From contig QPGO01000056.1 of the NCBI GenBank assembly GCA_008632985.1, positions 62,001-126,000 on the forward strand: a stretch of 64,000 nucleotides of DNA, given 5' to 3'. This stretch comes from Psammoneis japonica (Eukaryota). The notes under the pieces are model-generated. The model ran no database searches. It saw only the letters and a program-made list of their open reading frames with translations, and was not told the origin of the DNA. This document shows positions 1 to 52,900 of this stretch, piece after piece. How positions within the stretch are numbered: position 1 is the stretch's first letter; each line of letters begins with the position of its first letter. Position numbers and translations under genes: made by a program.

Positions 1-2430
1 CAACACAAGTCCTGACGAACTCCAGACCTGCCATGAGTTCACTCACGTGCTCTTGAAAAACATCTGGAGCTCCGCAGATTCTCACAGGCAGCCTGCAGCA
101 CTCATGTTTGCCCCAAGGCATGATGATTGTGCACAAGCAACGTGCGTGCAGAGTTGATTTGATGTGACAGCATCCCATGTTCAAATCAAGTGAAGTGGCA
201 TGCATGAAACCCTTGAGCTTCTGCAGCACATCTTGAACATTGGGTGGAGGAAATGGATCACACATTGACCTCTCATTTGGTTCACAAAAGTCTGATGGGA
301 ACCAAACTTGACCAATTTTCTTTGGCTGAACAAAGGTTGGAGCTGCCCATTTGCAACAATTGATTTTTCTTAAGACCTTTGGCTTGCACAGTCTTTCAAC
401 TTCCTTTCCAGCAGTCACCTCCAAGGCTTGTGATGTGGGAAATGGCTTTGTGTGATGCGGACTTGCACCCGATTTCAACTTGAGATCCACTGGTTTCCCA
501 GTCTGTTTGCCCAGAGAACCATCAAAAAGATCCTCAAATCTTTTTAGAAGAAAGTTCAGTTGTTTTTGCTCCTCTGGAGTTAGATGAGTTGCTGCTGCAG
601 CCACATTGTTGAGGTCAGCAGCATGATGATCTGAGTCAAGGATCCAATTGACTGTGTCATTAAGACCAATCACGGCATGAGATTCCTCAATGTGATTGGC
701 AACAAACTTGAAAACATTGGCATTGAAGAGTGTGTCAATGTTCTTCACAGGTGCAGTTGCTTCTTCCTGTTTGATTTCTTCATTCAAAAAGTCCAATGTG
801 ACTCCAAGACTGGACAACAAGTTGCATCCCATGATCACATCACAACAACTGGAGGAAGAAGGGGTGTTGTCAACATGTGCTGAAGTTTCCATCATCTCAT
901 GTTTGTCAAATTCAAGTGAGGTGAAATGGATTTTACACTGACTGTCAGTCGTGAAGAGTCCTCCTTTGGTTTCCCAAATTTTGGTGGCAGATTCTTTGGT
1001 TCTGAGTTTCCGCGTGAATTTGTGCAAAATTGTTGTTGACGATCTTCCGCTGTCAAGGAGAATGCACAGAGGCTTGTTTTTTCCTTGCCCAAGGATGCAT
1101 TCACATGGGCAATGACTTCTGGACCAGAGTGAATTGCTTTGGCCTTTTTCCTTGTCTTTCTAGCAACATCCAGCAACACACAAGACTCCTCTGGTGGAGT
1201 GAGTCATTCTTCAAAATCGCTGTGGGTCAATTTTTCAAATTGACGGTTTTCCTCACTGAGGGCATCTGAGTCATGATCCTTGCTCTTGCGCTTTGCATCA
1301 TTGTTCGGGCAACTCAACTTGAACATTTTTTGAACTGCCTTGTCAATCATGGCATTCAGCTCTTCTTTGCGAGTGGCGTTTCCATTGTTGCGACATGACC
1401 ATGTGCGATTGCCATTCGAACAATGCCGTTTTTGATCACGCCCACAATTTCCATTGCATTCCTTGGCAAGTTTTTTAATGACCCAGCATTTGTGTGTGTG
1501 TTGTGAGTGTCCTTTTTGCAGCACTTACACCACTTTTCAGGATCATCTCGTTCAGCACCAGATTGGCAACCATTTTTGGAACCATGACTGGATCCATCTT
1601 TGGCTTTTGACCCAGGCTTGCCACTGGCATCAGCCTTGACATTGACAGAGTCAAAGATGTCCTCAGCAACCTCCAGTCACTCCAAGAACTCCACCAACTC
1701 ATCACAGGCATGCTTTAAATTCTTGAAACCTTGAAGAGTCAACTGGCGCTGCCATTTGCATGGCACAAGGTTGTAAAAGACATCCTTGAGCTTGTTGCCC
1801 TTGAGCTTCTGATCTTCTGCAAAGGGAGGACAATGCTTGAGGTCTTCGTTGACTTCTTGGATCCAAGTGGCGATTTCTCGGATCTTCATGGTTTCTGGTT
1901 TCTTGAGATCATGATGTGGATGAAGCTTTTGAATCTGGAGAGTGTTCTTTGGAAATGCGTGCCTTGTGAGGTGTTGCAGACATTTTTTGAAGGCTGCTTT
2001 GCTCTCTTCATCTTCAAGATTTGCAGCGCCATTCTTGAGTGCATGCAGAGCATCTCCTTGCAGCAGCACACACATGAGACAGAACTCATTGGCTTGTTTC
2101 TTGATGTTCTGGCCCACCAAGAGTTGTCTGTGGTGCTTCAAAAATTGGAGGTGCTTGGGAACACCTTGCTTCTTGCAGTGCTTGACATTGATGGTGTGAA
2201 TGCAACAACTGTCTGTCTTGTCTGGATGAAAACACTGCTCCATCTTGAGACACTGGCTTGGTTTGAGCATCTTTGGCTTGGAGATCAAATCCAAGGGCTG
2301 AGGAACAATTTTCTCCTGCCTTGAGAAAGACTTGGAGTTGGCGGCATGAGGCGAAAGCTTCATTTTTGTTTCTTTTGCCTTCTGTGGTGTGCACACACAA
2401 TGCACTGTGCTCGAAGAACGAGCATCATCA
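1..2430 (-). mobile_element. Ty3/Gypsy LTR retrotransposon, degenerate (gag, protease, N-terminal RT; runs off the window's left edge)
   Basis: Gag ATG at 2363 (MKLSPHAANSKS...), CX2CX4HX4C knuckle (KWCKCCKKDTHNTHKC, ~1490-1535), protease LLDSG (~1045-1062), RT motifs LQKLKGFMHATSLDLNMGCCHI and MPWG (110-235). Colinear with the plus-strand copy at 49.9-54.2 kb. Confidence 0.93.
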
Positions 2431-3154
2431 GAGACCCATGGAAAAGGCCTTGAGTCACAAGTCATCAAACCCCACCATCTCATGGCGTGCACGTGCACGC
2501 CTAGATTGGTGGACCCCCTCCAGATTAAAATCGACATTCACTCATTGCAAAGACAACATTTTTGTTTGTTTTCAATTTGCAGATCAGGCATGGGATGTCA
2601 TGCATTTGTTGCTCCACAAAACATTTTGTTTGAGGTGGGCTGTCGGCCCATTTTTTTTTCGCACGTCTTTTCCGGGTTTTTGCGCATTTTTGACGGGTCG
2701 CGACAGAAAACAACACGACAAAAGCACAAGCGACAATGATGATGTTCGCAACGAGTGGTGAGTTGCAAAGCATCACCTCACGAGGGACCCTCATTGGTTT
2801 TGTTGTCGTCATGCAGTGCAGATTGATTTGTGTGCTTTCGTCCCTCGTGCCACTGGGCCAATTTTGAGAGACAGCACAATTGCCGTCATCGTCGTGCTTC
2901 GATCGCGGTGCCTGATGTTCTCGTTTTTGTGGGCGATCGAACAATTCTTGCATTTAAAACCAACAATTGCAAACAAACGCATTCAAACACATTGCCAATT
3001 TTAGGACAAATGTGGAAAAAACATGTCGGTGGTCCCCCTTGAGGCTGGGAACCCCCTTGTGTTTTCGACATGTGTTTGTAAAAAGCATCAAAAACAACCA
3101 ATCTTTTGATCATTTGTGGTGCAATTGTGGAAAAAATGTCCCAACGCGTTCGGC

Positions 3155-3353
3155 GCTCACCGTGCAAACAACACGACAATGGCCGAAATGCCGTTCGTTC
3201 TCGAAAACTCAGTGGGGCAGCCTCCAACTTTTTTCAGAGTGTGTCATGTTTGACATGGGCAACAAACTTGTGAAGAAAGTTGGAGGCCTCCCCATCTCCA
3301 TTGCGCTCAATGAACGGCATTTCAGCCATTGTCGTGTTGTTTGCACGGTGAGC
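3155..3353. repeat. 45-bp inverted repeat with ~110-bp spacer (second copy at ~7469-7666)
   Basis: gctcaccgtgcaaacaacacgacaatggccgaaatgccgttcgtt (3155-3199) versus its near-perfect reverse complement at 3309-3353. Confidence 0.85.
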
Positions 3354-5883
3354 TCAGAATTCGCGCTCAAGCTGTTTGAGCGTTTTCCACAAATCTCACG
3401 CATTCGCAAAAAATGCTGTTTCATTTCATCCGTTTTTCTGGTGAAATTTCCAAAGTTCCCCCGAAAACAAGGGATTTCCCACCCTTGGGTTTGCATTTGT
3501 CAACTTGAGCACCAAAATGCCAAGTCACACGGCCACATCATTCCCTCAACTGAGGACAATTGCATTTCATTCCAGCTTAAAAAACATTCATTTTCATGTT
3601 GCACGTGGCATTTCTTTTGCCAAAATTTCTGCATTTCCGTCCTCATGATGGATGTTGACAATTCCGCGAAATTTTCCACCATTTTCTGCTTCCCCTCCGA
3701 AACCTCCTCCTCTCTGCCGAACCACAATCTTTCATTTGCACCATTCCCCTGAGCCATCATGTTTGGGGCATTTGTCCCTTCCACTTGTGATCTGCGGGTC
3801 CAATCCCCCATGTTTTGGTGAATCAGCGCAGAGCCACAAAAGCAGCATGATGAGAAGTCCATGGGTTTCTGTGTCCTCTGTTCATGCCGCAATCGCCCAT
3901 GGCGGTTTGTCTCTCCCGCCGTTGCGACCATGCCCCGTCTCAAAGTCACACCCAAGTGAAAGCAACGTGTCTCTCTTCTTGCTCTGAATCATTTGGGGAT
4001 GACACCGAATGTGAAACTCACCCATCGCACCGCTTTGTCACGTCTCCAGACCACAACGGCTTGCTCAATGATGTTTTTTCGACATCCAACATGGCAGCAA
4101 ACCTCTCCAATGACGTCAATCTTAGCTCTGACGATGCCTCCGATGGCAACAACTTGTCTGCTCAAGACCTTGATGGTTGTGCCAGTGATCTTTCTTTTCC
4201 CAACGAAGATGATGCAGGTGTCGATTCTTTAGACGGAGGCAATGTTTCTGTTCTTGACAACCACACCAAAGTGTGCACAAATGGCATTGAAGGCACCTGC
4301 GTGACGAAGTCCCAACTTAAAAAAAATCATCAAGATGCAGCACCACCATCAGAAGTTCATCAAGACTCACAAATGGACACCCTCCGCTGATCTCATTGCC
4401 CTGCCCTTCGTTCATTGTAACTGCCAGAATTGAGTCTCCCATTTCTTCATGGAAGTGTTGATGGTCAATGATGTGGTTGCCCATTCTCTTGGCTGCAAAG
4501 ATGGCTTTCATTGTGTAAAAAGTCGTGGCTGGATGTGTTCTTGTTGCAAAGATGGGAGGCATGTTCTGGAGTGCTGCAAGCTGGCCAAAACATTTTCCAA
4601 TCTTTCCTGATTCAGCAAACATCTCCGTGCAATCATTGACGATTTGTGCAAGATGACAGCAAGCTAACAAATTGGCAATGACCCTTGCTTCCTTTGGCTC
4701 AACAGCTTCAGATCCAAATTGGATTTTTTGCACAATGCCTGAGCATCGCTGTCACCATGACAGACTGTTGCTTTCTCCCTCACGTCGACAAAGAGTCAGG
4801 CAATTTTTGATGCTGGTCGACCATTGTTTTTTCTGGCTGCAAAAAGAGGAAACAGTTTGTGCTGTTTTGCAATGATGTTTTGACCCTGATGAACACAGAT
4901 CAGAAGTTGAAGGATGGGAAGGTTGTCAAGAAGATCCTCGTTGATCATCTGGAATGTGTCAAGGCTTGCGTCAACACTCATGCCATGGCAAAAGGCATGG
5001 CACAAAAACACCAAGAGTTGGTTGAACATGAGCTCCATTCCACCTTCAAGCACTCCTGCAAGGACACAAATTGTCTCAAGTTCCGCAACCTGGCAATTGT
5101 GCGATCACGTGTCAGCAATCTCATGCATCCATGCCTTTCCCATGAGGCCAAGGCAAAGTTTGTTTCTTCCACCAAGAGGAGAAAGAAGAGCAAGGAGTCC
5201 TCCAGTGTGTCTCTGCTGGTTCTCCAGCACCTCCGCCCACTTCATCCAAGAAAGACACCAACCAGAATCCTGTTGCTCCATCAGCACACTTGCCTCCCAG
5301 TTGCAACCCTGACAACAAAGTCAAGGCATTGTCGGATGGAGAGTTGCCATCGGCGGGTGAATCATTGACTGATGACAACCCCATCCAAAATGTTCCCAAT
5401 GCCAGTGCTGTGGGTCCATCCCTGGGAGGAGTTGCTTCTTCAGCATCTCCATTGAAGCCAAGCACATCGGCCAGCACCACAACTTCCTTGTCAATTGAAG
5501 ACTGGTTCCCCCATGGTCTTTGTTGCCGCTTTGCGTCCCTTGCTGATGTCTCAAGGCATGCTCCTCGCGTTTGTGTTTTTTATGATCCAGACGATGATGA
5601 TGATGACAGCGAGCAATCTGCCAATCGTGAGCCAAACCTGTGTCATTCTCCAGCAGACCATTGCTCACTTGACGATCTGCAACATCATCTCCATTCCTTT
5701 GTGATGACGCAACCACTTCCTTCTGCCACAAATCATGATCGGGAGCTGGCGGTTGTCCCACCCAGAGCTCAACACATTCAGGGTGACGCTGCCATTTTGC
5801 GATTGTCCTCATGTCTTTGGCAGAAACACTTTGGATCTCTGCAAGTTGATGTCAGCATGATTGCCTGTTTTGTGCTTGAACAC

Positions 5884-6320
5884 AGCTTTGCTCTCTTCAT
5901 CTTCAAGATTTGCAGTGCCATTCTTGAGTGCATGCAGAGCATCTCCTTGCAGCAGCACACACATGAGACAGAACTCATTGGCTTGTTTCTTGATGTTCTG
6001 GCCCACCAAGAGTTGTTTGCGGTGCTTCAAAAATTGGAGGTGCTTGGGAACACCTTGCTTCTTGCAGTGCTTGACATTGATGGTGTGAGTGCGACAACTG
6101 TCTGTCTTGTCTGGATGAAAACACTGCTCCATCTTGAGACACTGGCTTGGTTTGAGCATCTTTGGCTTGGAGATCAAATCCAAGGGCTGAGGAACAATTT
6201 TCTCCTGCCTTGAGAAAGACTTGGAGTTGGCAACATGAGGCAAAAGCTTCGTTTTCGTTTCTTTTGCCTTCTGTGGTGTGCACACACAATGCACTGTGCT
6301 CAAAGAACGAGCATCATCAG
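5884..6320 (-). mobile_element. Duplicated 5' gag fragment of the Ty3/Gypsy element
   Basis: ORF 5809-6381 is nearly identical to the N-terminal part of ORF 1677-2537. Confidence 0.9.
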
Positions 6321-6755
6321 AGACCCATGGAAAAGGCCTTGAGTCACAAGTCATCAAACCCCACCATCTCATGGTGTGCACGTGCGCGCCTAGATTGGTG
6401 GACCCCCTCCAGATTAAAATTGACTTTCATTCATTGCAAAGACAACATTTTTGTTCATTTTCAATTTGCAGATCAGGCGTGGGATGTCATGCATTTGTTG
6501 CTCCACAAAACATTTTGTTTGAGGCGGGCCGTCGGCCCATTTTTTTCGCATGTCTTTTCTGGGTTTTTACGTGTTTTTGACGGGTCGCGACAGAAAACAA
6601 CATGACAAAAGCACGAGCGACAATGATGATGTTCGCGACAAGCGGTGAGTTGCAAAGCATCACCTCACGAGGGACACTCATTGGTTTTGTTGTCGTCATG
6701 CAGTGCAGATTGATTTGTGTGCTTTCATCCCTCGTGCCACTGGGCCAATTTTGAG

Positions 6756-7174
6756 CAGTGTCAACCAATTGCTGGGATCGACTGCAATCAGCCTCACTTT
6801 GATTGCAGTTGCAATTGCAAACTCGATTGCAGTGACCTGATTGTCAGGAAAGAGCCAAGGTCGCAATCACAGTCGACTGTTGCAGTCGATTGCAGTCAAA
6901 ATTCAAGCTCTTTTTTTAGCTAAAATCAGTGAAATGGCTCGATTCTTTGCCTGCGGCGGGCTTTTCTCCTGTGCGGAGTGCGCTCTTGCGCAGAGAGCGC
7001 CCCTGTGTGGGGGGCATGCCTGGCCGGCGGGGCGACTGCAGCCACGATTGCAATCTGTTCGTCAGACCGCGCAATCGCTGCGTGATTGCAGTTGACCAAT
7101 TGCTGTTCCACAGCGATGCAATCGACTGACTGCAATCTGATTGCTGCAGAAAACTTTGCAATTGGTTGACCCTG
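6756..7174. mobile_element. hAT-superfamily MITE (419 bp)
   Basis: 17-bp TIRs cagtgtcaaccaattgc / gcaattggttgaccctg (1 mismatch). 8-bp TSD attttgag at 6748-6755 and 7175-7182. The empty site with a single attttgag is at 2861-2868. Many subterminal gattgca/tgcaatc motifs. Confidence 0.93.
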
Positions 7175-10100
7175 ATTTTGAGAGATGGCACAATTGCCGT
7201 CATCGTCGTGCTTCGATCACGGTGCCTGATGTTCTCGTTTTCGTGGGCGATCGAACAATTCTTGCATTTTAAATTGACGATTACAAACAAACGCATTCAA
7301 ACACATTGCCAATTTTAGGATAAATGCGGAAAAAACATGTCGGCGGTCCCCCTTGAGGCTGGGAACCCCCTTGTGTTTTTGACATGTGTTTGTAAAAAGC
7401 ATCAAAAATGACCAATCTTTTAATCATTTATGACGCAATTATGGAAAAAATGTCCCAACGCGTTCGGCGCTCACCATGCAAACAACACGACAATGGCCGA
7501 AATGCCGTTCGTTCTCGAAAACTCAGTGGGGCAGCCTCCAACTTTTTTCAGAGTACATCGCGTTTGACATGGGCAACAAACTTGTGAAGAAAGTTGGAGG
7601 CCTCCCCATCTCCATTGCGTTCAACGAACGGCATTTCAGCCATTGTCGTGTTGTTTGCACGGTGAGCTCAGAATTCGCGCTCAAGCCGTTTGAGCGTTTT
7701 TCCATAAATCGCACGCATTCGCAAAAAATGCTGTTTTATTTTATCCGTTTTTCCAGTGAAATTTCCAAAATTCCCCCGAAAACAAAGGGATTTCCCACCC
7801 TTAATTTGCATTTGTCAACTTGAGCACCAAAATGCCAAGTCACACGGCCACATCATTCCCTCAACTGAGGACAATTGCATTTCATTCCAGCTTAAAAACA
7901 TTCATTTTCATGTTGCATGTGGCATTTCTTTTGCCAAAATTTCTGCATTTCCGTCCTCATGATGGATGTTGACAATTCCGCAAAATTTTCCACCATTTTC
8001 TGCTTCCCCTCCGAAACCCCCTCCTCTCCGCCGAATCACAATCTTCCATTTGCACCATTCCCCTGAGCCATCATGTTTGGGGCATTTGTCCCTTCCACTT
8101 GTGATCTGCGGGTCCAATCCCCCATGTTTTGGTGAGTCAGCGCAGAGCCACAAAAGCAGCATGATGAGAAGTCCATGGGTTTCTGTGTCCTCTGTTCATG
8201 CCGCGATCGCCCATGGCGGTTTGTCTCTCCCGCAGTTGCGACCATGCCCCGTCTCAAAGTCACACCCAAGTGAAAGCAACGTGTCTCTCTTCTTGCTCTG
8301 AATCATTTGGGGATGACACCGAATGTGAAACTCGCCCATCGCACCGCTTTGTCACGTCTCCAGACCACAACGGCTTGCTCAATGATGTTTTTTCGACATC
8401 CAACATGGCAGCAAACCTCTCCAATGATGTCAATCTTAGCTCTGACGATGCCTCCAATGGCAACAACTTGTCTGCTCAAGACCTTGATGGTTGTGCCAGT
8501 GATCTTTCTTTTCCCAATGAAGATGATGCAGGCGCCGATTCTTTGGACGGAGGCAATGTTTCTGTTCTTGACAACCACACCAAAGTGTGCACAAATGGCA
8601 TTGAAGGCACCTGCGTGACGAAGTCCCAATTAAAAAAAAAATCATCAAGATGCAGCACCACCATCAGATGTTCATCAAGACTCACAAATGGACACCCTCT
8701 GCTGATCTCATTGCCCTGCCCTTTGTTCATTGTAACCACCAGAATTGAGCCTCCCATTTCTTCATGGAAGTGTTGATGGTCAACGATGTGGTTGCCCATT
8801 CTCTTGGCTGCAAAGATGGCTTTCATTGTGCAAAAAGTCATGGCTGGATGTGTTCTTGTTGCAAAGATGGGAGGCATGTTCTGGAGTGCTGCAAGCTGGC
8901 CAAAACATTTTCCAATCTTTCCTGATTCAGCAAACATCTCCGTGCAATCATTGACGATTTGTGCAAGATGACAGCAAGCGAACGAATTGGCAATGACCCT
9001 TGCTTCCTTTGGCTCAACAGCTTCAGATCCAAATTGGATTTTTTGCACAATGCCTGAGCATCGCTGTCACCATGACAGACTGTTGCTTTCTCCCTCATGT
9101 CAACAAAGAGTTTGGCAATTTTTGATGCTGGTCGACCATTGTTTTTTCCGGCTGCAAAAAGAGGAAACAGTTTGTGCTGTTTTGCAATGATGTTTTGACC
9201 CTGATGAACACAGATCAGAAGTTGAAGGATGGGAAGGTTGTCAAGAAGATCCTCGTTGATCATCTGGAATGTGTCAAGGCTTGCGTCAACACTCATGCCA
9301 TGGCAAAAGGCATGGCACAAAAACACCAAGAGTTGGTTGAACATGAGCTCCATTCCACCTTCAAGTGCTCCTGCAAGGACACAAATTGTCTCAAGTTCCG
9401 CAACCTGGCAATTGTGCAATCACGTGTCAGCAATCTCATGCATCCATGCCTTTCCCATGAGGCCAAGGCAAAGTTTGTTTCTTCCACCAAGAGGAGGAAG
9501 AAGAGCAAGGAGCCCTCCAGTGTGTCTCTGCTGGTTTTCCAGCACCTCCGCCCACTTCATCCAAGAAAGACACCAACCAGAATCCTGTTGCTCCATCAGC
9601 ACACTTGCCTCCCAGTTGCAACCCTGACAACAAAGTCAAGGCATTGTCGGATGGAGAGTTGCCATCGGCGGGTGAATCATTGACTGATGACAACCCCATC
9701 CAAAATGTTCCCAATGCCAGTGCTGTGGGTCCATCCCTGGGAGGAGTTGCTTCTTCAGCATCTCCATTGAAGCCAAGCACATCGGCCAGCACCACAACTT
9801 CCTTGTCAATTGAAGACTGGTTCCCCCATGGTCTTTGTTGCCGCTTGGCATCCCTTGCTGATGTCTCAAGGCATGCTCCTTGCGTTTGTGTTTTTTATGA
9901 TCCAGACGACAATGATGATGACAATGAGCAATCTGCCAATCGTGAGCCAAGCCTGTGTCATTCTCCAGCAGACCATTGCTCACTTGACGATCTGCGACAT
10001 CATCTCCATTCCTTTGTGATGACGCAACCACTTCCTTCTGCCACAAATCATGACCGGGAGCTGGTGGTTGTCCCACCCAGAGCTCAACACATTCAGGGTG

Positions 10101-10859
10101 ACACTGCCATTTTGCGCTTGTCCTCACGTCTTTGGCAGAAACACTTTGGATCTCTGCAAGTTGATGTCAGCATGATTGCCTGTTTTGTGCTTGAACACGG
10201 CTGTTCCAATCCAAACCATGACAAGAAGATCAAGCGCTGCAAGAAACACAACAATGATCGGTCCAAGCAGCCAGAGAAATGGGGCCGGATCGATTGTGGC
10301 TGCCAGGGAACATTTTGTAAAGAGAGGAATCGTCATCGTCATGCTCATTGTCATTGCAACCCTTGTCTTCCTCTTCCTCCTCTTCCTCCTCCTCCTGTGG
10401 AAAGCTGGGTGAGTTGTCATCTCTGTTGAGGTCCGTGCTGCGATTCAGTGCTTTGTCATTCTCAGATGCAGAAATGGACAACTTACAAGCAATTTGCTGC
10501 TCTTGGAATGCAAAAACGGCGGCTTGCAACAACTGGCTCAATTGAGTTGTGGCAGACGCACGAGGACGGGCTACATTTTGTGAGTGGTGGCAGCAATGGT
10601 GGCAAACAGGCATGCCAAGCTAAGAGTGTGATTGGAGACAAGGAAGGCAAAGATGCATGATGAGACAATTGGATGCTTGTTCACAACCATTTGTTGGCAT
10701 GCAGGTGTTGGATTGATTTTTGAATCAAATTGTTGAGTGTGCACCTGGTTGATTTTTGAGTGGGAGACACTTGGCATGGTGGCAATTTCCACCAGAGGGT
10801 TGGCCACAGGGAGGCAATTGGACATGAGGGCACACACATGTTTGGAAATTAAAGATGAC

Positions 10860-29530: not shown

Positions 29531-29699
29531 CTTGCTTCCGAAGAATGGCCAAAGTTGGAAGGTTGCCGTCTTCTCTTGCACAGATGATCGTTCAATTTTT
29601 TGAGCGGCAAGAGCAAGCGGTCAGCAACCATGAAATGGTCACGACAGTTGCCATTGGTTGTCTCACCTCGTTTGGCCACTCAAGGGGGGTCGGTGTCAA

Positions 29700-39360: not shown

Positions 39361-39886
39361 AGCTTCAGAGAAGGCCTGACACATCAAACAACACACTGTT
39401 TTTCCCAAAATTCAGATGGCAAAACGTTTTTGGCCTGTTCTGGGGCAAAGGCACTGGTGGCAGAAGTCCATGGATTCCCATGGGGCTGCTCAGAGATGAT
39501 GCTTGGCACAATTGCTTTGGCGAGTGCACCTCGACGTTGTGCCGAAAATCCAGAAAAAAGTCAGTGCTGTCACAAACAGTGATTTTCGTCTGCACGTCTT
39601 CCGCCAAAAAAGGTCTGTTAAAAACACCCACCTCGTGTCGTTCGACGAGGCGAAATGACCCAATTCCGACCGTTGGGTCATTTGTGGCCGTTTAAATGTT
39701 TGAACATGCTTGCACGAGCATGAGAGCAATGGTCGTTTCTCTTGGTTCACTCCCATCGACTCATTCTTCCGAAGAGCAACCAAGAGCAACAGCCGGTCTA
39801 GACAGTTTTTAACACCATCACTGCGGCAGAGGATGCCTTCCGCCGTCGCTCACGTTTTGTTTGCAGGAGAAGCTTTGTCGCTGCAC

Positions 39887-42110
39887 GATGAACAATCAGC
39901 AGCCACCAGCACCACAGGCGCAAGTGCCCCAGAACCCAAATCAGCAGAATGCGCAACAGCCTGCTGCCACTCAAAATCAACCAGCACCACCACCGCCACA
40001 GGTGCAAGTGCCACAAGCCGCTGCAGTGCAGCCACCACAAGGACAAGCACCGCAAGCCGCACCACAAGTGCAAGCCCCTGGAGTCCCTGCAGTGCCGCGA
40101 GTGGCACCAGTCATCCAGAGCTGCCGTGATTGTCACCTCACGGCGACCAACGACCCACACGCTGGAGAGCATGCCGAAGCCATGTTGGATTTTGCCGCTC
40201 CACTGCAAGGGCAATCGCGACACAACCCGGCAAATCTCCACGCCCGAGTGGCCGCCGCCTCAAGCCACAATCAACCCATGGCCATTGCCACACACTGCCG
40301 TGCGGCGGGTGCAGCAGATGAAGGGCACATCCAAATTGTGCGCCGACTGTCAACCCATCCGACCACGGTGGTCGGTACACCCGAACCGTGGGACGACCAA
40401 ACTTTTGCCATTTTTGGCGATCTCATGCTTGGTCAGTTTACATTGGTCGAGTCAGGCGACGACGCCTTTAATTTGGTGCCGCAAGGAACATGGGTTCTGA
40501 ATCATGCGGCGCTTCAAGGGCACATCGCCACAACACCCGAGGGCCTGCACCCACATGTGCTCGCCCAAGCAGCGGAGTCTGAAGAAGTGCGCACTCGAAA
40601 CGCCATGTTTGTGCCATTTGAGTTCGTAAATCTCCTCATGGCGCAACCCTTGTGCCCAAAGGACGCTCATCGCCGCATTCACGGCGCCACACAGACAGCT
40701 GACAAAGTGGCTGCAATTGCGCCACTGCCAGACTTCCTTCGAGTGGCGTGTTGCGCCACTCTCAACGCGCCGATGCAATCCGCCGTTGCCGTCACTTGGC
40801 CGAGCATGACTCGGCCGCCCAACGAAGCGCCAGTGCGCCATTTTGATCCCAAGGTCAAGCGCGACATTCCAGGTCGCACGGGACGAGCCCAGGTGCAGGC
40901 ACCACAGTTCCAACCTGCAATTGCCACAACAGAGGGGCTCACCACCGAGCAGCGCCGTGCACGCACCGATGCCAAGGATCGTCAACGAGCTGCGGTGCGA
41001 GGCAAGATGCCGAACGAGTTCTTCGGCGATCACGGTGTCACCAAGCTGTTGCGCTGGTGTCAGATCTACAACGAGGCCGCACTGCCACCTTCATGGGCGG
41101 CACTCGCCGCAGCACCCAAGACGGGGCGCCTCGCCGTCATCCAAAACGCCATTGACGAGCAACGCCAGGCGCTGGGCGTGCATTTTGACGTGCCCGTCAC
41201 GGTGAGTTCATCACCAAGCTGGTCCAATTGGATTTTGCCGGCTACAACCAAGAAGAGCCGACTCAGGCATTGCGCCATTCTTGTTTGGACTCACAATGCC
41301 CGAAGCCGCCGAACAGATTTCCTGCCAGAGCGCTGTGTGTGAGCATGTTCACAGCGGTGCCGGCGCCCCTTTGCTTCCAGACGTCCAGCTGTTGGAAGCA
41401 CCGGACAAAGTGCTGGCAGCCACCACCATGCAAGCCGCCCAGCAGTCATGCGATGGGCATCGCCTCCTCCCATCCGCTGCACCAGGGGACAACCACCCAG
41501 TGGTGCACTGGCTCAGCCGACAGCGTCACAACATGGACCGACATGCCGATGAACTTGCAGTGCAGCATGCACTCCATGCCACCCTCCCAGCTGATTTCCA
41601 GTGCTGCGCTCAAGTCGAGATCCGGCACTGGTTTCGCACACAATCCAATGCTCTGCAAGAAGTGCCGTTCACCCCCTTGGAAATCGTGCACCAGGCGGCC
41701 AAAGGCACGTTGTGCTGGTGCTTCCACCTCCCGGCCACTGTGCAAGCTGCCGTGCCACTTGCTGCTGCCATGCCAGACCCACGTGGCCCCACGCAACCAG
41801 CGCCAGCACCACGAGACACCTCTAACTCGCCGGGCAGCAATGGCATCGTGCGCAATCCATCGCACGACCAGCGCTTCAGCAAATTGCGCGATTGTCCCAA
41901 CGTGCGCTCTCGTGATGTCAAGATGCGCTGTGCACGGGAAAAGATCGACCCGCCTGCCGATGACCAAGGCCGCACGCGTTGCTGTCCCTGCCACTGCAAG
42001 GGCCAGTGCAACACCAATTGTGGCTCTAGTCATGATCATCGCAATGACCATTCTGACGATGAGCAAGCTCGCCTCCTCAAATGGGGAGAGGAGCACTGGA
42101 AGACCGAACA
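39887..42110 (+). pseudogene. ORF1 (gag-like) of the YR retrotransposon, frameshifted near 41.2-41.3 kb
   Basis: P/Q-rich N-terminus (ORF 39861-41342). It continues in ORF 41281 up to a Cys/His finger, RCCPCHCKGQCNTNCGSSHDH. Confidence 0.7.
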
Positions 42111-44330
42111 GGTCTTCGGCAATGGAGCAAGTTCGGGGACTTGCCTCCAAGAGCCACCCTTCGCACCGGCCAAGAGGCCGATGCATCCACAACCCCCGAC
42201 TGTGGAGAGTTCAAAGCGTCAGCGCACCCGCCCCGCCACACGCGGACAGGATGTTGCTGTCGCCACCCACAATGACAAACTGGGTGAGCACATTAAAAAT
42301 GACACGTCTTTAATGCGTCGTCGAGGTCTCAGTTACTTGTTGCACCAACGTAGCGGCAGAGGCGACTGGGGAAACCTGCACCGGGTCCAACAACACCCGG
42401 CACACCGGTTGCTTTGGAACTGCAAGTGCCGAGGAGCACCAATCACCGTCGCCGACAAGCCTTGGACACAAGCTGAGCTAGACACTAGCATCGCCAGGGG
42501 CCCCCACAAGTCCGCCCATGAACACATCGAGTTTTTGCGAGAAGACATGGCCGACATGGTCGAAAAGGGCTTTTGGGTCGTGCCACCCTACTCCGAGGTT
42601 CGCAACACACCAGGATTGCGCCTCAGCCCCATCGGCGTCGTACCACAACATGGCCGACGTCCTCGCCCTGTCGTAGACTACACCCACTGCGGGCACAACA
42701 CTTCCACGCAACCCAATGCACCCATGGAAGCCATGCAATTTGGTTGCACGCTAGACCGTTTGCTTCGCCGTGTCCTTCTCGCCAACCCTGCCAAAGGCAA
42801 AGTCCACCTCATGAAAGTCGACCTTGCCGATGGCTGTTGCCGCATGCAACTGGTTCCAGAGCGTGCGCCCCTCCTAGGAGTGGTGTTCCCCAGTGCTCCG
42901 GGGGAGCCACCACTTGTTGCCATCCCAACTAGATTGCCCATGGGCTGGGCCAATTCACCGCCGCTGTTCTGCGCCGCCACAGAAACTGTTGCCGATCCAG
43001 CCAATCTGGATCTTGTGCACAACGTCCAAGCTCCACCTCATCCGCTGGAGCATCTGCTGGACAGCCGCCCCGAACCACACCAACCCACGCCTGTTCATGA
43101 CCCAGCCCACGCCGTGCCTGCCCCTGCTCGCCCGGATCCCCATCTCCGTCCGGACCGACGCCGTCGCCTGCAGCACATCGACATCTGTGTTGATGACTTT
43201 ATGGGCGCCGCCCAAGGCTCGCACTCAGCATGCCGCAACGTCCACAGGGTTCTACTCCACATCCTGGACGACACATTCCGGCCACTCGATTCACACGACC
43301 GTCCCACCTGCAAGGAGCCTGTCTCCGTCAAAAAGCTCCGCAAGGGTGACGCGACTTGGTCGACACAGAAAGAAGTTTTAGGATGGATCATTGACACTCT
43401 GTCAATGACCCTGCACCTCACCCCACGCCGACGCGCCCGACTTCGCCAAACGCTGCACCAGGACTTTCCCCGCACACGCAAACGTGCCGACACCACCGAT
43501 TGTCACAAGTTGCTCGGCGAACTCCGTTCCCTCGCACTGGCCATCCCAGGCTCTCGAGGGCTGTTCTCCGAGCTCCAACACAATCTCCGCAACACCAATC
43601 CGGACTCCCGAATCCGGATCAGCAACCATTGGCACTGCGCCCCAGACGATTTTCGTGCCCTCGAACCAACGTTGGAACACCGACCCGTTCGCATCCAGGA
43701 ACTGGTGCCTCTCCCACCAACCATCACCGGCTGCCACGACGCAGCAGGTCATGGAGCTGGCGGCATCACACTCCCCACTGACACTGCCACACCTCGCGCC
43801 GCGACTCTACACTTCAGCAACGGACGCAAATGTCAACAATGCGACGCAGGCCCCATTGTTTGGCGCCAACCTTTCCCGAAAACTGTCGCTGCACTCTTGT
43901 CCACCTGCCGCAATCCCCGTGGCCCCATCACCAACACTGACTTGGAACCAGCTGGGGGCGCAATCCAGTCACACGCAGCCGCCGATTGCTTTGACATGCT
44001 CGAGCGCACACATTTGTCTCGCACCAACAACTCGGGAACCATGTGCTGGGAATGCAAAGGCTCGACGATGACCATCAAGCCAGCTGCCAAGCTCCTTTGT
44101 TTTCAAGGCCATCACCAATGATGCCACCGCCATGTCAGCCTCTATGACTGCTGGCCGGGTTTCCTCAACACAGCCGCCAACGATGCATCTCGTCTCCAGT
44201 CCCTTGCCAACCATGAATTTTTGCGCCATTTTAATCTCTGTCATCCGCAGAAACTCTCCTGGCACCTTTGGACGCCGCCACCCGAGCTGATTTCCTTTGT
44301 GATCTCGACGCTGCTCAACACGCCGTGGCC
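42111..44330 (+). pseudogene. Reverse transcriptase / RNase H of the YR retrotransposon
   Basis: LSPIGVVPQ..RRPRPVVDY, KVDLADGCCR, LPMGWANSPP, HIDICVDDF (YVDD>CVDD), LGWIID, HDAAGHGAGG, ITNTDLE. The in-frame TGA at 44119 is followed by an NTAANDASRL RNase H tail. Confidence 0.92.
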
Positions 44331-45422
44331 CACGGTGTCACCTCTAGCCGAGCCTCCGCCGCCAATGCCCACTGGGACAAATGGCGTGAGTTCTGCACCA
44401 CTGTGGCCCTCGACCCATTGCTCCAAGATGTCGACGACCCTGTTGTCTTCCTGCAAGTCTTCCCACACCGCTGCAGAACTGGAGTCATCGCCCCACAAGG
44501 CAATCCCATCTGCGGCCGCACCGCTGAGGATGCCGTGTGGTCGGTTGGCCAAACGTTCGCTGCGATGGGGGCCCCAGACCCACGCCACACATCCCAAGGC
44601 AACATGGATTTCAGACTTGCCCGCCAAGTCCGTTTCCACAAGAAACAGGATCCTCCCCCGGGCCAAGTCAAACCCGTCCCGGTGGCTGTGCTCATGTGGA
44701 TTGTGCACGCAGCAGCCAACAGCAATGATCCGGGCACCCAAGCTGTCGCCGACATGATCGCCACAGCTTTTTTCTTTTTATTGCGTCCCGGCGAACATGC
44801 CACGATGCCGTCGGATGCTGCCCCGTTCCGACTGGCAGACGCACGCTTGGCAGCCGGAGGCGTCTACCTTGACACCTTCCAAGCTACGCATGCCCAACTC
44901 GACGCTTCCACCTTCGCCACCCTCACGTTCACTGCTCAAAATAACGGAGCACCAGGCAAAGTTCTCGGCTCAGGCTTGTCTGGTCACCCAAACTTGTGCC
45001 CTGCCCAAGCCTCAATCCGTCACGTCAAACACTTGCGCACCCATGGCGCGCTGCCTGACACTCCCCTTGGCATCCATTTCCACAACAACGCCTGGTGGCG
45101 CATGTCGCCGGCCGATGTCACCAGCGTTCTGCACAACGCTGTCATTGCTCTCGGTCTGGCAACCCTTGGTTTCACCACAAGGGACATTGCCGCTCGGTGT
45201 CTTCGCACCTCTGGCGCCATGGCACTGCTTTGCGCCCAAGTTGACACCAATCTCATTCGGCTCTTGGGCCGCTGGCGGTCTGACGAGATGCTGCGACACC
45301 TGCACCTGCAGGCCGAACCCATCATGCGCAACTTCGCCCGCGACATGCTCGCAGGTGGCGATTTCGTCCTCCACCCCAATGCTGAAGTGCCTGTGAACCC
45401 GCAAGATCCCGTCCAAGACTGA
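44268..45422 (+). pseudogene. Tyrosine recombinase of the YR retrotransposon; catalytic Tyr replaced by His
   Basis: FFFLLRPGEH (box I), ARCLRTSGAMAL, LGRWRSDEMLRHLH. The codon at the catalytic Tyr position (45297-45299) is CAC. Confidence 0.92.
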
Positions 45423-46799
45423 TGTCGCCACCAGCCCTCCAGCCTCCGCCCACCCACCCACCCAATGGTGCACACCTCTACAGTGCCATGCACTGTGGTG
45501 GTGCTGGAAGGCCCTGCCATTCCAGCTGGGGTTTGGGAGTGAGGCTTGTGCATCTGCTGGCAAAGCCACCCCAGTCCTGTTTCGCCAAGTTTTAGAAGCT
45601 CTAGCTTCAGCTAGAGAGCCACAGGAGAAGGAACGAGAAAGGCGGCATGAGCCGCCTGCCTCGNTGTCGTTCGATGAGGCGAAATGACCCAATTCCGACT
45701 GTTGGGTCATTTGCAGCCGTTTAAATGTTTGAACGTGCTTGCACGAGCATGAGAGCAACGGTCGTTTCTCTTGGTTCGCTCCCATCGACTCATTCTTCCG
45801 AAGAGCAACCAAGAGCAACAGCCGGTCTAGACAGTTTTTAACACTCCCACCTCTCCCGCCCTCTGGCCCTTCCGTTCCAGCTGGGGTTTGGGAATGAGGC
45901 TTGTGCATCTGCCAGCAAAGCCATTCCAGTCCTGTTTTGCCAAGTTTTAGAAGCTCCAGCTTTGGCTAGAGAGCCACAGGAGAAGGAACGAGAAAGGCGG
46001 CATGAGCCGCAAAGACGCATGCGTGCATTGCTCAAATGGGTGCACAATTTAAAACAGTGGAAAATTGGAAAAAATGCAAACGTTGAGTTGCACGTGGGCC
46101 TCACCACAATGACGGTGTGTGGGTCGACATGAATTGCAGCAATCTGGGAGAGGTGGACAATGGCCAAATGGGAAGATCACTTGCAAAAATGGATTCATCA
46201 CACAACTTGTTCCCTGCCACAAACCGGCTGGGACAACACACAAAATTTGAGAAAAGCGGCAGTGACACCCTGTCAAATGGGAAGGCAATGGACAAACCGA
46301 TTGCAGAGGGAGTGAGGACTCAAGATGTTGGGAGTGCAGAGTCAAGCAGCAAGTTGGGTTGACAACAGTGGGAGGATGAAGACAAGGACTGTCACCAACC
46401 AGCAGCAAATGGGCTGTGGTGTGGTTCTGTGCAGTTGCCACCAGCCCAGCTCCTGTGGGGTTGTTGAACTTGCAAAGAAACAAGCATGGGGAGTTGAATT
46501 GTTTCCAGCTGTTGAGAGGTGGCGGGAGTTCAACAGCGACACACCAACAGAGGGACATCATGTCATGGATTGGGCTCCAGCAGTGGGTGAAAAATTGATG
46601 GGGTCCATGTTGACAGAGGTGGTCAATGAAAGTGTGTGGCCATGTCAAAAGTTCATCATCTTCAACAGGGAGTTGGTGGCAGGAGGAGAGTGCATGAAAA
46701 TGGTTCTCCAGGAATTGAGGAGCATGGCATTGATGCTGGAGACAAAAAGCCAAACAGGAAAAGAAACAATGCACAAGACAATGTGAGAAAGAGGGTGAC

Positions 46800-47516
46800 A
46801 GATGTGAAAGTGTGACAATTGTGTGTGACTGTTGAGGACAAGAGAGACTGAATGTTGTCTCTGCATTCCTTGCTTTCTCCAATGCAGTTTTTGCTTTGGA
46901 AGGGAACCTGGTGGAGTTTGAAGATTTGCACAAAGGCAGGGATGACAAGGACATGCGCACATGGTTCTTGGAGATGACAGTGCCTGCGGTGATGGGCCAA
47001 GCACAGTTTGGAAGGAGCACATCAGATCTGCTCAAAGAGTGGCTGACAACATCTTCTGAGGCCTTTGCTCTGCTGCTGCACACAAACTTCTGTGACAAGG
47101 TCATTGACACAGCAGGGATGTTGGAGAAGAAGGACAACAGAACAAGGAGCAGAAAGCTGATGATGATGGGTGCAAAGAATGCCAAGTGCATGGCAAAGGC
47201 TTGGGAGGAATTGGCAAAGAGGAGCCAAGGTTGGAGCAAGGCGGGCATCGTGAAGCACAATGAGCTGTGTGCGTGGGTGGTGCAAGACTGGGAGAAGAAT
47301 GATGGATTTGGTGTGTGGTTCAAGGAACAGAGATGCACAAAGGCTGAATTGTCAAAGGAGGTGGAGAAGAAACACAAGAGGGAAGAGAGCAAAAAGAAGA
47401 AGAAGGAGGAAGGGTGGGATGCCCCAATGGGAGAGGCACTGCCATTGCAGTGGGTGGCTGCCAACGATGGCACAAATGAAGCAGCAGCAATGGCGACCCA
47501 CCAAACTGCTGTGTGA
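46800..47516 (+). pseudogene. Degenerate TE-associated ORF (SEAFALLL...GWS..G..NEL motif family)
   Basis: ORF 46896-47516: LTTSSEAFALLLHTNF ... GWSKAGIVKHNELCAWVVQD. Confidence 0.5.
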
Positions 47517-49939
47517 ACTCAAATTGCAGCAAATGACAAAGACCAGAATGTTCAGAAATAAAATAAAAACTGGGGTGCAACTTTTGATGCAACAGTCAGT
47601 GAAAAACAATTGGTTGTTCAAACATTGCTTTTGAAGCAAGAACGAGGAGATTAAAAAGGTGGGAGGAAATCACCAGAGCAATTCTGGTTTACATGCAGAA
47701 ACAGATTCTAAGAAAAAGCAAAAAAACCAACATGCAAAACAAGAGGCAAGTTAGATTGTGGGCAACCATGGTCATTGTTCAAAGTGAGGTGCAAGGTGGA
47801 ATCTAGAAATTGCAAACCCAATCATTTCTGAGCTCACATTTGAACAAATGCTTGACTTGAGAAGGAACAAAAATCTTGGTTTGAAGTCAAGCCATTGGCT
47901 GCCGGATTGTGACAGGTGGCCAAGCCCGGATCATTGGCATCCCAGATGCTCCCCAGAGCTCCTGTTCATCTGCAAACATTTGCACTGGAGCTGCCAGCAT
48001 GATGAAATTCTGATGCAGAGCATCAAAGGGTTGCAAACCAAGCAAAAAGTTTTGGGCTAAAGTGCAGAGCAATGGGGTGTGGAGCCCCTCACTCATTTGT
48101 GACAAGCCCATCAGGCGCTGCAACTTCCACTTGGCACCTGGGAGCTCAGGACACAAGGAGCTTGTTGAGAAGACAGCAATGGAGATGGCCTTCATGGGAA
48201 GAGTTTATGGGAAGAAAGATCTGCTTTCAAGCAAAATTCAACACGCAGGGTGAATGTGTCGTCTTCCCTTCCACTTCAACCATGTTGAAATGGCAGTCCT
48301 CTGAGCCTCATTTGTCTGCAATCCAGGGCAGCCGAGGTGTGGAACACTGTCAACATTTGCATGATTGCACAAAGTGTTCTCTCTGTTGAACATTCTGTTG
48401 TTTAAATCCACAAGTGACTTTCTAGGTTCTGCAGAAAGAGCTGCTGTGGGGCACAACAAATTCAACAAGGAGCTCTCTGGACCTTCAATGAGGAGGCAGG
48501 TGAAAGCAAAGTCTTCTTTGATGGTGCAAAATTTCATTTTTTTTTTTGGAGGAACAAAAGTCAGCGCCCAATTGTGGCATTGTCACCTTTCTTTTTCCCT
48601 TTCAGCATTTTGGCAGCTTGGTTGCATGCACTTTTCATGTGTGGCTCTGTCACAATGAGGTTGCATCAACCATTGAGATGCATGATGCACACTCAACTCA
48701 ACACAAAAGCAACAGGTTGTTCAGCACAATGACAGAGAGTTGTTCAACATGTCACAAGAGGGCAACAAGGTCTCAAACCTTGGTCCATGACAAACTGTTG
48801 CATTCCTGTGACCGATCTCAGCACTGACTCTCCCACCCACTCAGCCACTTACAGTCAGTTGTTCACAAATGAAAGTTTGATGTCACTTGACTGGGTGGTC
48901 AGTGAAAAGCATCAAGAGGAACAGATGAAACAACAATGCAAGAGAAGACACAAAGCTGCAGATGTGTGAGCAAGACTTGGTGGTGCACTTTTCACCATTG
49001 CCATTGCTTCCATCATTGCAGTGCAGGAAGGGCCAATTGGAAGCAACAATCAGCAGTGTCATCGAAAATGTGGACAATTCTTTTCTTTCCCTCAGCGTCA
49101 CTCTGCAGCGTGCTCTTGCCAACCATGCCATGCTCCATTGCTGGTGACAGAATGCCAACAGTTTTCAAACACAGACTCGTGCATTCTGTTTGTCACTGTG
49201 GAATGAAAAAGAGAATGACTGTTGCATGAAACAGGCTTTTCACATTCCTTGAGCACACTGCTCAAAACAGAATGTGAGGTGCATTCCATGAAAAGAGGCC
49301 TCCACAAAACATGCAAAAACGGTCTTGTTTCTTGTGGAATGGCTCAGAGGAATGTGAGAAAAAAGGCTTGTTCCACACATTTCTGTGAAGTCTTGTTTGC
49401 ACAGAAAATGCAAACCCCCCAAGATGGCACCCATGTTGGGGGACCCCTTTGTCCATCTTGGGGGACTCTTGTTTCTGTTTCACCACGGCCCCCCTGCTGT
49501 CGCATGTTGAGGGGTTGTGCCGCAACTCAAGGTTCCCACTTCAAACCCTCGGTGCAGGCTTCCCGCACATGCTCGGCATGTGTCAAGGTTGGCATGTGGA
49601 GCCATCAAACCGAGGGTCTTCATGCCTTCACCCGACATTGCGCAATGGCTTTCGCTCATCGTCGAAGAAAAACAAACAAATTTTTGGGCTGTGATCTTCG
49701 TTTTTCTGGATGTCGAAAATGGCAAATACGATCGTACGATGATGTTGACATCTCATGTGTCAATGTCAATCGCATCCGGACAATCTGTTGTCACGATCTT
49801 ATTCTCCGAAAGGCCTCTTGTCTGTGGGAACAGTGCAAATGCTTTAGGCCATTGAGAACTCATTCGGAGAAACCCAAAATGATTGGATGGAAACAATTCT
49901 CATAATTTTCACTTTTCATGCTTGGCTCTACTTTCGTTT

Positions 49940-52900
49940 GTGCTCGTTCTTCAAGCACAGTGCATTGTGCACACACACCACAGAAGGTGACAAGTCGAAG
50001 ATGAAGCTTTCACCTCATGCAACTAATGCCAAGACTTCGTTGAGGCAAGAGAAAATCGTTCCTCAGCCGTTGGAATCGAATTCCGAGCCGAAGATGCTCA
50101 AACCGAGTCAGCACCTCAAGATGGAGCAGTGTTTTCATCCCGAGAAGAAGGACAGTCGCACCCACACTGTCAATGTCGAGCACTGCAAGAAGCAGGGCGT
50201 TCCCAAGCACATCGAATTTCTCAAGAGCTGCGGTCAACTTCTGGTGGGCCAGAACATCAAGAAGCAAGTGGACAAGTTCCGTCTCATGCATGTGCTGTTG
50301 CAAGGAGATGCTCTGCATGCTTTTGAGAATGGAGCAACGAATGTTGAAGACGAATCTGAAGAAGGAAGCTTCGAGAAATGCCTGCAGCACCTTGCGCGAC
50401 ATGTGTTTCCCAAGAACGCACTCCAGATTCAGAAACGGCATTTGCATCGCGATCTCAAGAAGCCAGAGTCCATGAAAGTGCGCGAAATCGCTGCTTGGGT
50501 CCAGGAAGTCAATGAAGACCTCAAGTTCCATCCTCCCTTTGGAGAGGATCAGAAGATTGAGGAGGACGAGCTCAAGGACATCCTCTTTAATCTTGCACCT
50601 CGAAAGTGGCAGCATCAGTCGACCGTCCAAGGTTTCGAAATTTTGAAACACACCTGCGACGAGTTGGTTGAGTTTCTGGAGCGCCCAGAGGTTGCAGAGG
50701 ACGTGTTTGACAGCATTCATGTCAAGGCTGATCCCAGTGGCAGTGCTGGATTGAAAGCCAAGAATGGCTCCAAACATGGTTCCAAAAATGGTCACCAACA
50801 TGGTGCCGAAAATTCTCAGTCCAACAAGTGGTGCATTCCATGCAAAAAATCCACTCACAACATGGACAAATGCTCTGGTTGATTAAGAAACTGGCAAAAG
50901 AACGCCGTGGAAACATTGAGTGTGATCCAAAACGGCGCCGTTCAAATGGCAATCGCACGTGGTCGCGTCGCGATGACGAAAATGCCTCTCGCAAGGAAGA
51001 GTTGAATGCCGTGGCAGTCCAGGCAGTTCAAAAAACACTCAAGGCGAGTTCCTCAAACAAGGGAAAAAAGCACAAGAGCAAAGATTGCGACTCTGATGCC
51101 CTTGATGAGGAGAACTGTCAACTTGAAAAAATGACGCGCAGCAATTCTGACGAATGACTTGCACCGCAAGAGGAGTCTTGCGCATTGCTGGACATTGGGA
51201 AGCCCAGAAAAAGGGCCAAAACAATTCACGCTAGTCCAGCAGTTGTTGCTCACATGAGTGCCTCATTGGGCAAAGCAAAAAACAAGCCTCTGCACGTTCT
51301 CCTCGACAGCGGAACATCGTCAACCACAATTTTGCACAAATTCACGCGGAAACTCAGAACAAAAACATCCGCCACCAAGATCTGGGAAACCAAAGGAGGG
51401 CACTTTACGACTGACAGTCGGTGCAAAATCCAGTTCTCCTTGCCCGAATTTGACAAACACAAGATGATTGAAAGAACGGTGCATGTTGACAATGCCCCTT
51501 CTTCTTTGAGTCATTGTGATGTGATCATGGGACACAACTTGATGTCAAGTCTTGGAATGGCATTGGACTTCTCAAACAAAGAGATCAAATGGGAGGGCGC
51601 AACTGCACCCATGAAGAATGTTGACACACTCTTGATGCCAATGTTTTTAAGTTGATTGCTGATCACATTGAGGATTCTCATGCTGTGATTGGTCTTGATG
51701 ACAGGGTCAATTGGATCCTTGACTCAGATTGTCACGCTGCCAACCTTGACAATGTGACAGCAGCAGCAACTCACCTAACTCCAGAAGAGCAGAAGCAGCT
51801 AAACTTCCTCTTAAAAAGATTTGAAAACCTTTTCAATGGTTCTCCAGGCAAATGGACTGGGAAACCGGTGGATTTAAAGTTGAAGTCGGACGCGAGTCCG
51901 TGTTGTGCCAAACCATTTCCCATGCCACAAGCCTTGGAGGCAACTGCTTGAAAGGAGGTTGAAAGACTGTGCAAATTAAAAGTCTCAAGAAAAACAAATT
52001 GTTCTGAACAGGCAGCTCCAACTTTCATTCAACCAAAGAAAAATGGTCGAGTTTGGTTTTTGTCCAACTTTTGTGAGCTGAACAAGAGGTTGATGCACGT
52101 GCCGTTTCCTCCACCCAATGTTCAGGACATGCTGCAAAAACTTGAAGGTTTCATGCATGCAACATCCCTTGATTTAAACATGGGACACTGTCACATCGAA
52201 TCAATCCGCATGCACGTCGTTTGAGCACGATTGTCATGCCTGGGGGCAAATGTGAGTGCTGCAGACTCCCTGTGGGAATCTGTGGAGCTCCAGATGTTTT
52301 CCAAGAGCACGTGAGTGAGCTCATGGCAGGTCTGGAGTTCATCAGGACTTGTGTTGATGACATGCTGTGCCTGTCAAAAGGTGATTTCCAAGACCACCTC
52401 AAGAAGCTTGAGACGGTGCTTTTGCACCTTGAACAAGCCGGGTTGAAGGTCAATGCCGAAAAGTCTTTTTTCACTAAACCCGAAGCAGACCATCTGGGCT
52501 TTCATGTCACCCGCAATGGCATCAGCCCCATTCCAAAAAAGGTAGAAGCGATTCACACGATCGCAACTCCTGAAACTTGCAAAGAATTGCAACGCTTTGT
52601 CTGCATGATCAACTGCTGTCGAGACATGTGGCCTCAATGATCTCATGTTCTGGCTCCTTCAGCCAAACTTTCTTCAGACCAAGCAAAGTGGCAATGGACC
52701 AAAACAGAACAAAAAGCCTTCAAAAATGTGAAGCGCATCATCTCCAAAGACACACCACCATCACATCCGAATTTCAACACACCCTTTGAGATGTGTGCTG
52801 ATGCAAGCAATTCTCAATTGGGGGCGGTTGTCACACAGAACAACCAACCAATTGCCTTCTGCAGCCGCAAGCTGAATGGAGCACAGACACATTACACTGC

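Follow-up and report, generated by a model that had tools for sequence, protein, structure and literature searches.

TpA dinucleotides are rewritten to TpG or CpA in transposon DNA of the diatom Psammoneis japonica, in tracts that also lose CpG

Two copies of a Gypsy long terminal repeat (LTR) retrotransposon in the diatom Psammoneis japonica raise the question of which process replaces conserved tyrosine codons by cysteine or histidine codons. The copies, here called A and B, lie in a 64,000-nucleotide stretch of DNA, referred to as the window (assembly GCA_008632985.1, contig QPGO01000056.1, positions 62,001 to 126,000). A sequence-only reading of the window had pointed out that the reverse transcriptase (RT) motif reads TGC-TGT-CAC in copy A and CAC-TGT-CAC in copy B, that the gag leaders differ in a similar manner, and that both would follow from independent hits on ancestral TA dinucleotides; the motif codons and the leaders are as it gave them (Table 1). 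The window is made up of two domains stripped of TpA and two genic blocks, with edges sharp to ~100 bases. Copies A and B have TpA observed/expected ratios (O/E) of 0.056 and 0.074, compared with 0.55 and 0.65 in the genic blocks. The two copies are 78.4% identical, and CA/TG swaps between them occupy 71 of 502 CA/TG sites (14.1%), whereas the remaining kinds of double transition occupy 29 of 1899 sites (1.5%; Fisher p=3e-28). They had been treated as a pair, but they are not a recent one: with 56 transversions per 1000 bases between them, they are old and belong to different subfamilies.

The direction of change is from TA to TG or CA, and it converts conserved Tyr codons to Cys or His. The RT motif is YYH in 36 and YYT in 20 of 61 natural homologous pol proteins (Tyr-Tyr in 56/61). 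In the 20 best copies from the genome, a set in which L001 is copy B and L002 and L003 are near-identical, the 40 motif codons comprise 22 TGY, 12 CAY, 5 TAY, one TAA and zero CGY. The TA origin proposed for the motif codons is thereby borne out, since other genome copies still carry TAC or TAT and the natural homologues mostly Tyr-Tyr. At conserved sites, defined as those where a residue is present in at least 85% of natural homologues, 20 full-length copies kept Tyr at 73 of 256 sites and Arg at 382 of 419 (p=7e-66), with W, F, D, Q, G and P kept at 98-100% in the same copies. The window copies retain conserved Tyr at one of 13 sites, in agreement with the near saturation suggested earlier, and conserved Arg at 10 of 22.

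We assessed how far the pattern extends in a genome sample of 38 stretches of 10 kb at fixed positions, divided into 380 one-kb bins and not length-weighted. TpA O/E was bimodally distributed and fell below 0.2 in 184 of the 380 bins. CpG O/E was 0.43 in bins with TpA below 0.2 and 0.95 in bins with TpA of at least 0.3 (Spearman 0.79). This depletion of CpG in the same domains is what would be expected if CpG decay alone, through deamination of 5-methylcytosine (CG to TG or CA), had made the CA/TG pairs, and the loss of Arg codons from the window copies points the same way. So do the swaps of the window pair itself: in the 60 swap columns overlapped by other loci, a count that is noisy because the comparators are sister subfamilies, the alternative state was TA only in 20, CG only in 15 (of 36 resolvable columns), both in one and neither in 24. 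The sequence-only account of these swaps as former TA sites consequently stands for part of them, with CpG decay contributing to the rest. CpG decay cannot remove TpA, however, and would add it via CpA and TpG; Tyr loss far exceeds Arg loss, and none of the 40 motif codons is CGY. In a young subfamily of 13 copies, 0-3 transversions per 1000 apart, 203 columns contain both CA and TG; as third state, 137 of these show TA, 15 show CG, 8 show both and 43 show neither. A CG-only origin, the outcome that would have spoken against the sequence-only reading, fails because the third state is mostly TA. CpG decay is refuted as the sole cause, a role for which we see practically no chance, and stays as a real second and slower process that explains part of the window pair's swaps.

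The timing of the change can be read from LTR pairs, because the two LTRs of an element are identical at insertion. The fetched copies have the Ty3/Gypsy layout, with LTRs of ~380 bp lying ~4.8 kb apart and paired in 17 of 20 copies (L022, L036 and L039 yielded none); the family's frames give an RVT_1 match and weak protease matches, and homologues carry RT, RNase H and integrase Pfam domains. The 17 pairs differ at 316 positions, of which 250 are TA-type or CA/TG (165 TA/TG or TA/CA, 85 CA/TG), 36 are CG-type, 19 are other transitions and 11 are transversions. The twins are frequently unequal, one being hit while its partner ~5 kb away is untouched. Because LTR twins differ, much of the change took place in chromosomal DNA after insertion, and RNA editing is excluded as the main cause. 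The earlier proposal of independent post-insertion hits in each copy is supported in this respect; its independence is not complete, as two young copies share the same state at 63% of sites hit in both, where 50% would be expected, so that roughly a quarter of such hits may have come down from source copies that were already partly mutated.

LTR replication copies RNA edits into both LTRs, and ADAR enzymes favour UAG. ADAR-like editing of retroelement RNA, fixed via reverse transcription, is therefore largely refuted by the LTR asymmetry, and we consider it extremely improbable: LTR pairs differ heavily, both strands are hit within one copy, copies of a DNA methyltransferase (DNMT) gene and a likely DNA transposon are hit as well, and TAG is disfavoured here. 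In its favour are two A_deamin genes in the genome, the inherited part of the hits and the 5' U preference described for ADAR in the main text of a recent preprint (Mettrop et al., bioRxiv 10.64898/2026.01.13.699255).

The mutational spectrum is narrow. In the young subfamily, ~20-75% of a comparator's TA sites differ (TG or CA), compared with ~7-12% of its CG sites, and 1-3 of ~146 comparator TA sites per copy become something besides TG, CA or CG. Changes in the young copies and in the LTR pairs are almost all transitions and affect both strands of nuclear DNA. Per-strand change was 0.35 at TAT, 0.35 at TAC, 0.23 at TAG and 0.18 at TAA, demonstrating a context preference of TAY > TAG > TAA. 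Within the old domains of the window, TTAA is the best-retained context (1.25 vs 2.06 per kb), and no ATAT is left (0.00 vs 3.46). Strand-coordinated processive mutation was rejected, as the strands are mixed at random within copies (z -0.8 to 1.5).

Hits are clustered in 7 of the 13 young copies (z 3.9-6.9). Two-state segmentation of 18 copies, with the older copy L035 left out, identified 4 copies hit throughout and 14 with spared tracts of ~0.15 to 2.7 kb. Private CpG transitions number 115/4984 in hit and 2/1145 in spared tracts (13-fold, p=2e-8), indicating that TA loss and CpG decay are co-located. Private A>G changes outside TA are also enriched, at 75/22759 versus 2/5115 (8-fold, p=5e-5), a level of 0.3% even within hit tracts. 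Background private changes are equal (54/44762 versus 10/9869, p=0.75), and on this ground we rejected the possibility that spared tracts are younger, recombined or converted DNA. Inward spread from the flanks was likewise rejected, since flank state fails, by eye, to predict LTR state.

The sharing of tracts by TA loss and CpG loss would be accounted for by error-prone long-patch repair of the polymerase eta type, mutating A:T pairs near deaminated 5-methylcytosine. Polymerase eta characteristically mutates WA and produces many transversions. In the diatom copies AA is preferred to neither GA nor CA, the TA sites changing otherwise than to TG, CA or CG are the 1-3 of ~146 given above, and TA loss far exceeds CpG loss. 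We accordingly give this explanation little credence.

Hit sequence includes multi-copy elements and, as an exception to the sparing of host genes, amplified and partly tandem copies of a C5 DNMT gene. Three of these (L092, L093 and L094, on contigs C301 and C297) have TpA O/E of 0.07-0.10, and L087-L091 and L095 are not stripped. Host-type or transposon-captured genes become hit once amplified, as would be expected if pairing between homologous repeats, as in repeat-induced point mutation (RIP), set the targets instead of a chromatin mark. Three observations make such pairing quite improbable. First, the stretch at 55600-56700 is TpA-stripped with one assembly match and gene-level read depth (59.2 vs 59.8), its copies being counted without the 450-bp repeat inserted there; this is one case of DNA hit without a duplicate, and former copies may be lost. 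Second, eight ribosomal DNA (rDNA) copies of 99.7-99.9% identity are spared, with TpA at 0.86-0.87, and a tandem Lhc duplicate of 650 bp has an ordinary spectrum, in a genome with 82 light-harvesting family matches. Third, one LTR can be hit with its twin 5 kb off untouched. The eight small-subunit rDNA copies lie on seven contigs (C10, C57, C80, C115, C419, C475 and C596), and the sequence upstream of them varies between copies and is TpA-stripped in some.

An assembly artefact was considered and rejected, as short-read contigs of run X1, which is possibly the source sample and then not independent, differ from the single-copy stretch at 10 of 1340 bases. Compared with the assembly, X1 contigs of about unique depth show two CA/TG swaps and one TA/TG difference (54561-54562, 45714-45715, 56038). 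These may be allelic differences, in which case the homologues would have been hit independently.

That a TpA-erasing process operating in transposon DNA is real we regard as practically certain. As to its agent, we lean, with moderate confidence, towards a host adenine deaminase recruited to silenced, probably CpG-methylated chromatin. Silenced and probably CpG-methylated tracts would recruit the deaminase or expose the DNA, and an enzyme of the TadA/ADAT fold would convert adenine to inosine, which templates C, so that TpA would become TpG or CpA depending on the strand. As the two strands are randomly mixed within one copy, the hits probably accumulate in many successive rounds. The hit tracts would correspond to heritable 5-methyl-CpG domains, given that CpG decay is 13-fold up inside them and background change is flat. 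The chromatin step is plausible because loss of DNMT5a in a model diatom is reported to deplete methylation and to lift the repression of young transposons (PMC9998398). The outcome may be defence, since conserved Tyr codons turn into Cys or His. As TAA and TAG stops are removed by the same change, dead elements keep long open frames.

Deaminase-type genes of the genome include an ADAT2-like gene, whose product carries HxE, PCxxC and an N-bearing 'GCRNDRFGGC' stretch, a TadA-like gene and the two A_deamin (ADAT1/ADAR-type) genes, which are separate (L097/L100 and L098/L099); for the second of the A_deamin genes, the Atlas returned generic editase clusters only. The N of the ADAT2-like stretch is shared by ADAT2 proteins throughout eukaryotes (PMC10354150). 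Two further frames resemble deaminases. L084:319-1791 (minus strand) encodes a fusion of a deaminase domain with a DIOX_N/2OG-Fe(II) oxygenase, likely a putative nucleobase-salvage protein. L234:1315-1773 (minus strand) lies on the margin of a TpA-stripped block, has Cys/His at positions where Tyr is expected and is a probable mutated paralogue.

Several points weigh against the deaminase reading. No enzyme is tied to the pattern, and the deaminases found resemble housekeeping tRNA enzymes. The N residue of the ADAT2-like protein does not discriminate, because it is common across eukaryotic ADAT2, and the sole natural ADAT2 with a measured DNA context, amphioxus BjADAT2, is described as preferring GAA, not TAY (PMC10354150). 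An A>G change and a T>C change on the opposite strand look the same in sequence, and CpG methylation of the tracts is suggested by CpG decay. Spared tracts recur at the 5' LTR, in mid-pol and at the 3' end, and the copies concerned fall into no common group by other markers; tract edges are without explanation, flank state being by eye no predictor. The 81% conversion within hit tracts (2515/3112) is partly circular, because TA state defined the tracts. Finally, A>G changes outside TA have no YA preference (AA 29, CA 30, GA 42), unlike engineered TadA.

The ambiguity of strand also admits thymine as the target. The T in R-T-A, once oxidised or otherwise handled by an enzyme of RID/DNMT4 type, would be read as C, the literal reverse of the CpA to TpA change of RIP. 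C5-methyltransferases are not known to convert T to C, and Tet_JBP gave 0 candidates in a loose first look at the genome, which does not prove absence. The spectrum fits this model equally well, and the genome has 29 DNA_methylase matches, several of them intact genes. Diatom DNMT4 is related to fungal RID and is reported to have no known function (PMC9998398). On balance we hold a thymine target to be unlikely.

TpA hypermutation is not undescribed. In the rhizarian Bigelowiella natans, the preprint's main text reports TpA-only hypermutation, to TpG/CpA, in two regions of integrated viral DNA, of which one is single-copy, at ~6e-7 per site per generation, a roughly 1000-fold rate active in a subset of lines, with 230/231 hypermutations being AT>GC, an unproven ADAT2 candidate, and RT/DDE domains enriched in TpA-poor coding sequences (bioRxiv 10.64898/2026.01.13.699255). 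The words 'diatom', 'stramenopile', 'CpG' and 'trinucleotide' are absent from that main text. The process in P. japonica resembles that description in the almost exclusive conversion of TpA to TpG/CpA, in a spectrum of nearly pure transitions that touches both strands of the nuclear DNA, in hitting foreign or selfish DNA and sparing host genes (the DNMT copies excepted), and in that a single-copy region can be hit, in one case here. It differs in host (a stramenopile), in scale (transposons in about half of the sampled bins, not two viral regions), in saturation (O/E ~0.06 in old domains, against 0.45) and in its sub-element tracts, 3' preference and co-located CpG decay. The near absence of GC>AT change described for B. 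natans is likewise not seen here, where 36 of 316 LTR differences are CG-type and CpG decay is 13-fold up in hit tracts; as the time scales differ, this may reflect CpG methylation in diatoms. We found no report of TpA hypermutation in diatoms, and no second paper on it in Bigelowiella, in the literature searched, which lay mostly outside subscription papers.

In RIP, known from ascomycete fungi, CpA becomes TpA, which enriches AT, creates stops and needs a homologous duplicate. It depends on RID, an enzyme of the DNMT4 type, and acts before meiosis. The diatom process resembles RIP as a host-driven, dinucleotide-specific transition hypermutation that wrecks repeats, and in a link to a methylation-type system through the RID-DNMT4 relationship. 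Unlike RIP, it turns T:A into C:G and removes stops, and no duplication trigger with both partners hit is seen, single-copy DNA being hit and LTR twins asymmetric. APOBEC and ADAR edit retroelements on one strand during replication, or as RNA. The likeness to them lies in a deaminase-type, context-specific hypermutation of LTR elements, and the difference in that both strands are hit after integration, in non-retroelement DNA too. TadA-derived editors also make A>G changes on DNA, and the YAY > YAR preference of engineered ABE8e-YA resembles the 3' preference here; these editors are engineered and Cas9-guided, unlike the process described here (PMC12528748). BjADAT2 differs in its GAA preference and in also deaminating C in TCG (PMC10354150).

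TpA stripping is not unique to this genome. Among the metagenome matches listed, it is a minority state: 6 of 124 loci with this RT motif are stripped and 106 have Tyr-Tyr. The six (L200, L213, L217 and L223; L110 and L183), with TpA O/E < 0.3 and Cys/His motifs, form two groups unrelated to the window's Gypsy family. In L200, 22 of 23 TA sites of its close relative L220 are now TG or CA.

A process known from two viral inserts in a rhizarian is hereby extended to a diatom, in which about half of the sampled genome is reshaped. Its occurrence in both suggests an old or repeatedly evolved eukaryotic defence. Tentatively, and with more doubt than belief, we propose an adenine-editing defence common to the stramenopile-alveolate-rhizarian (SAR) lineage, shared by rhizarians and diatoms, in which a TadA/ADAT-fold enzyme would read heritable CpG-methylated tracts and rewrite TpA until about half the genome is TA-free. 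If true, nature would have its own chromatin-guided adenine base editor, and RIP-like defences would include a second class, of reversed polarity; a natural enzyme that edits chromosomal adenine would itself be relevant to base editing. A testable targeting rule follows from the structure of the tracts and their link with CpG decay, and diatoms are CRISPR-editable (PMC9998398). For annotation, stripped transposons, having lost TAA/TAG stops and Tyr, yield long Cys/His-rich false open reading frames that escape Pfam (16 of 22 scanned frames had no match), and LTR or repeat ages taken from total divergence come out far too old.

Table 1. Features of the window, with TpA and CpG given as O/E
Feature	Positions	Strand	Remark
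Gypsy LTR retrotransposon copy A (gag, protease, RT start)	1..2424	-	continues past window start; 10 TA remain
Copy A RT motif codons TGC-TGT-CAC (C-C-H); Y-Y-H/T in natural homologues	164..172	-	
Copy A gag leader tgtgtgtgcacacc	2386..2399	-	
Gypsy copy B (5' LTR in part, gag, pol; 3' LTR unmatched)	49707..54156	+	RVT_1 E=4.5e-10
Copy B RT motif codons CAC-TGT-CAC (H-C-H)	52186..52194	+	
Copy B gag leader tgtgcacacacacc	49966..49979	+	
Partial gag, third copy, within local duplication (1987-2868 / 5876-6755)	5896..6314	-	
Solo LTR, family of Gypsy copies A/B	12925..13216	-	
TpA-stripped repeat domain	1..24400		TpA 0.057, CpG 0.39
Spared block with 967-codon open frame	24500..28300		TpA 0.55; sharp edges
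TpA-stripped repeat domain	28400..57000		TpA 0.074, CpG 0.54
Tc1/IS630-like DNA transposase reading, single-copy stretch	55600..56700	-	4 TA in 1.1 kb
Spared host genes (ABC-G-type transporter and diatom-like gene)	57100..64000		TpA 0.65, CpG 1.06

The 967-codon gene (24745-27648, minus strand) forms a spared island between the two stripped domains, and its product has a weak CarboxypepD_reg match and a Ser/Lys-rich linker. Two of the named homologues of a window gene bear diatom labels, which agrees, as do the light-harvesting family matches, with a diatom host. The single-copy stretch gave no Pfam match and is presumably Tc1/IS630-like, judging by its motifs. The very high-copy repeat of ~450 bp inserted within it (55072-55520) starts with TGCAA, contains a 110-bp direct repeat and reads as a solo LTR of another family. 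A GC-rich element at 39631-46010 and 28384-29504 contains frames that we take to be RT-like and tyrosine-recombinase-like from their motifs, with no Pfam match. Its C-terminal motif has CAC (MLRHLH) in one copy and TGC (MLRCLH) in the other, a second complementary pair, probably at the catalytic Tyr position. A 3-kb direct duplication (2861-5887 / 7175-10202) is 96.7% identical, with 38 CG-type differences, 12 TA-type differences and 8 swaps; since its differences are mostly CG-type, it likely postdates most of the TA loss.

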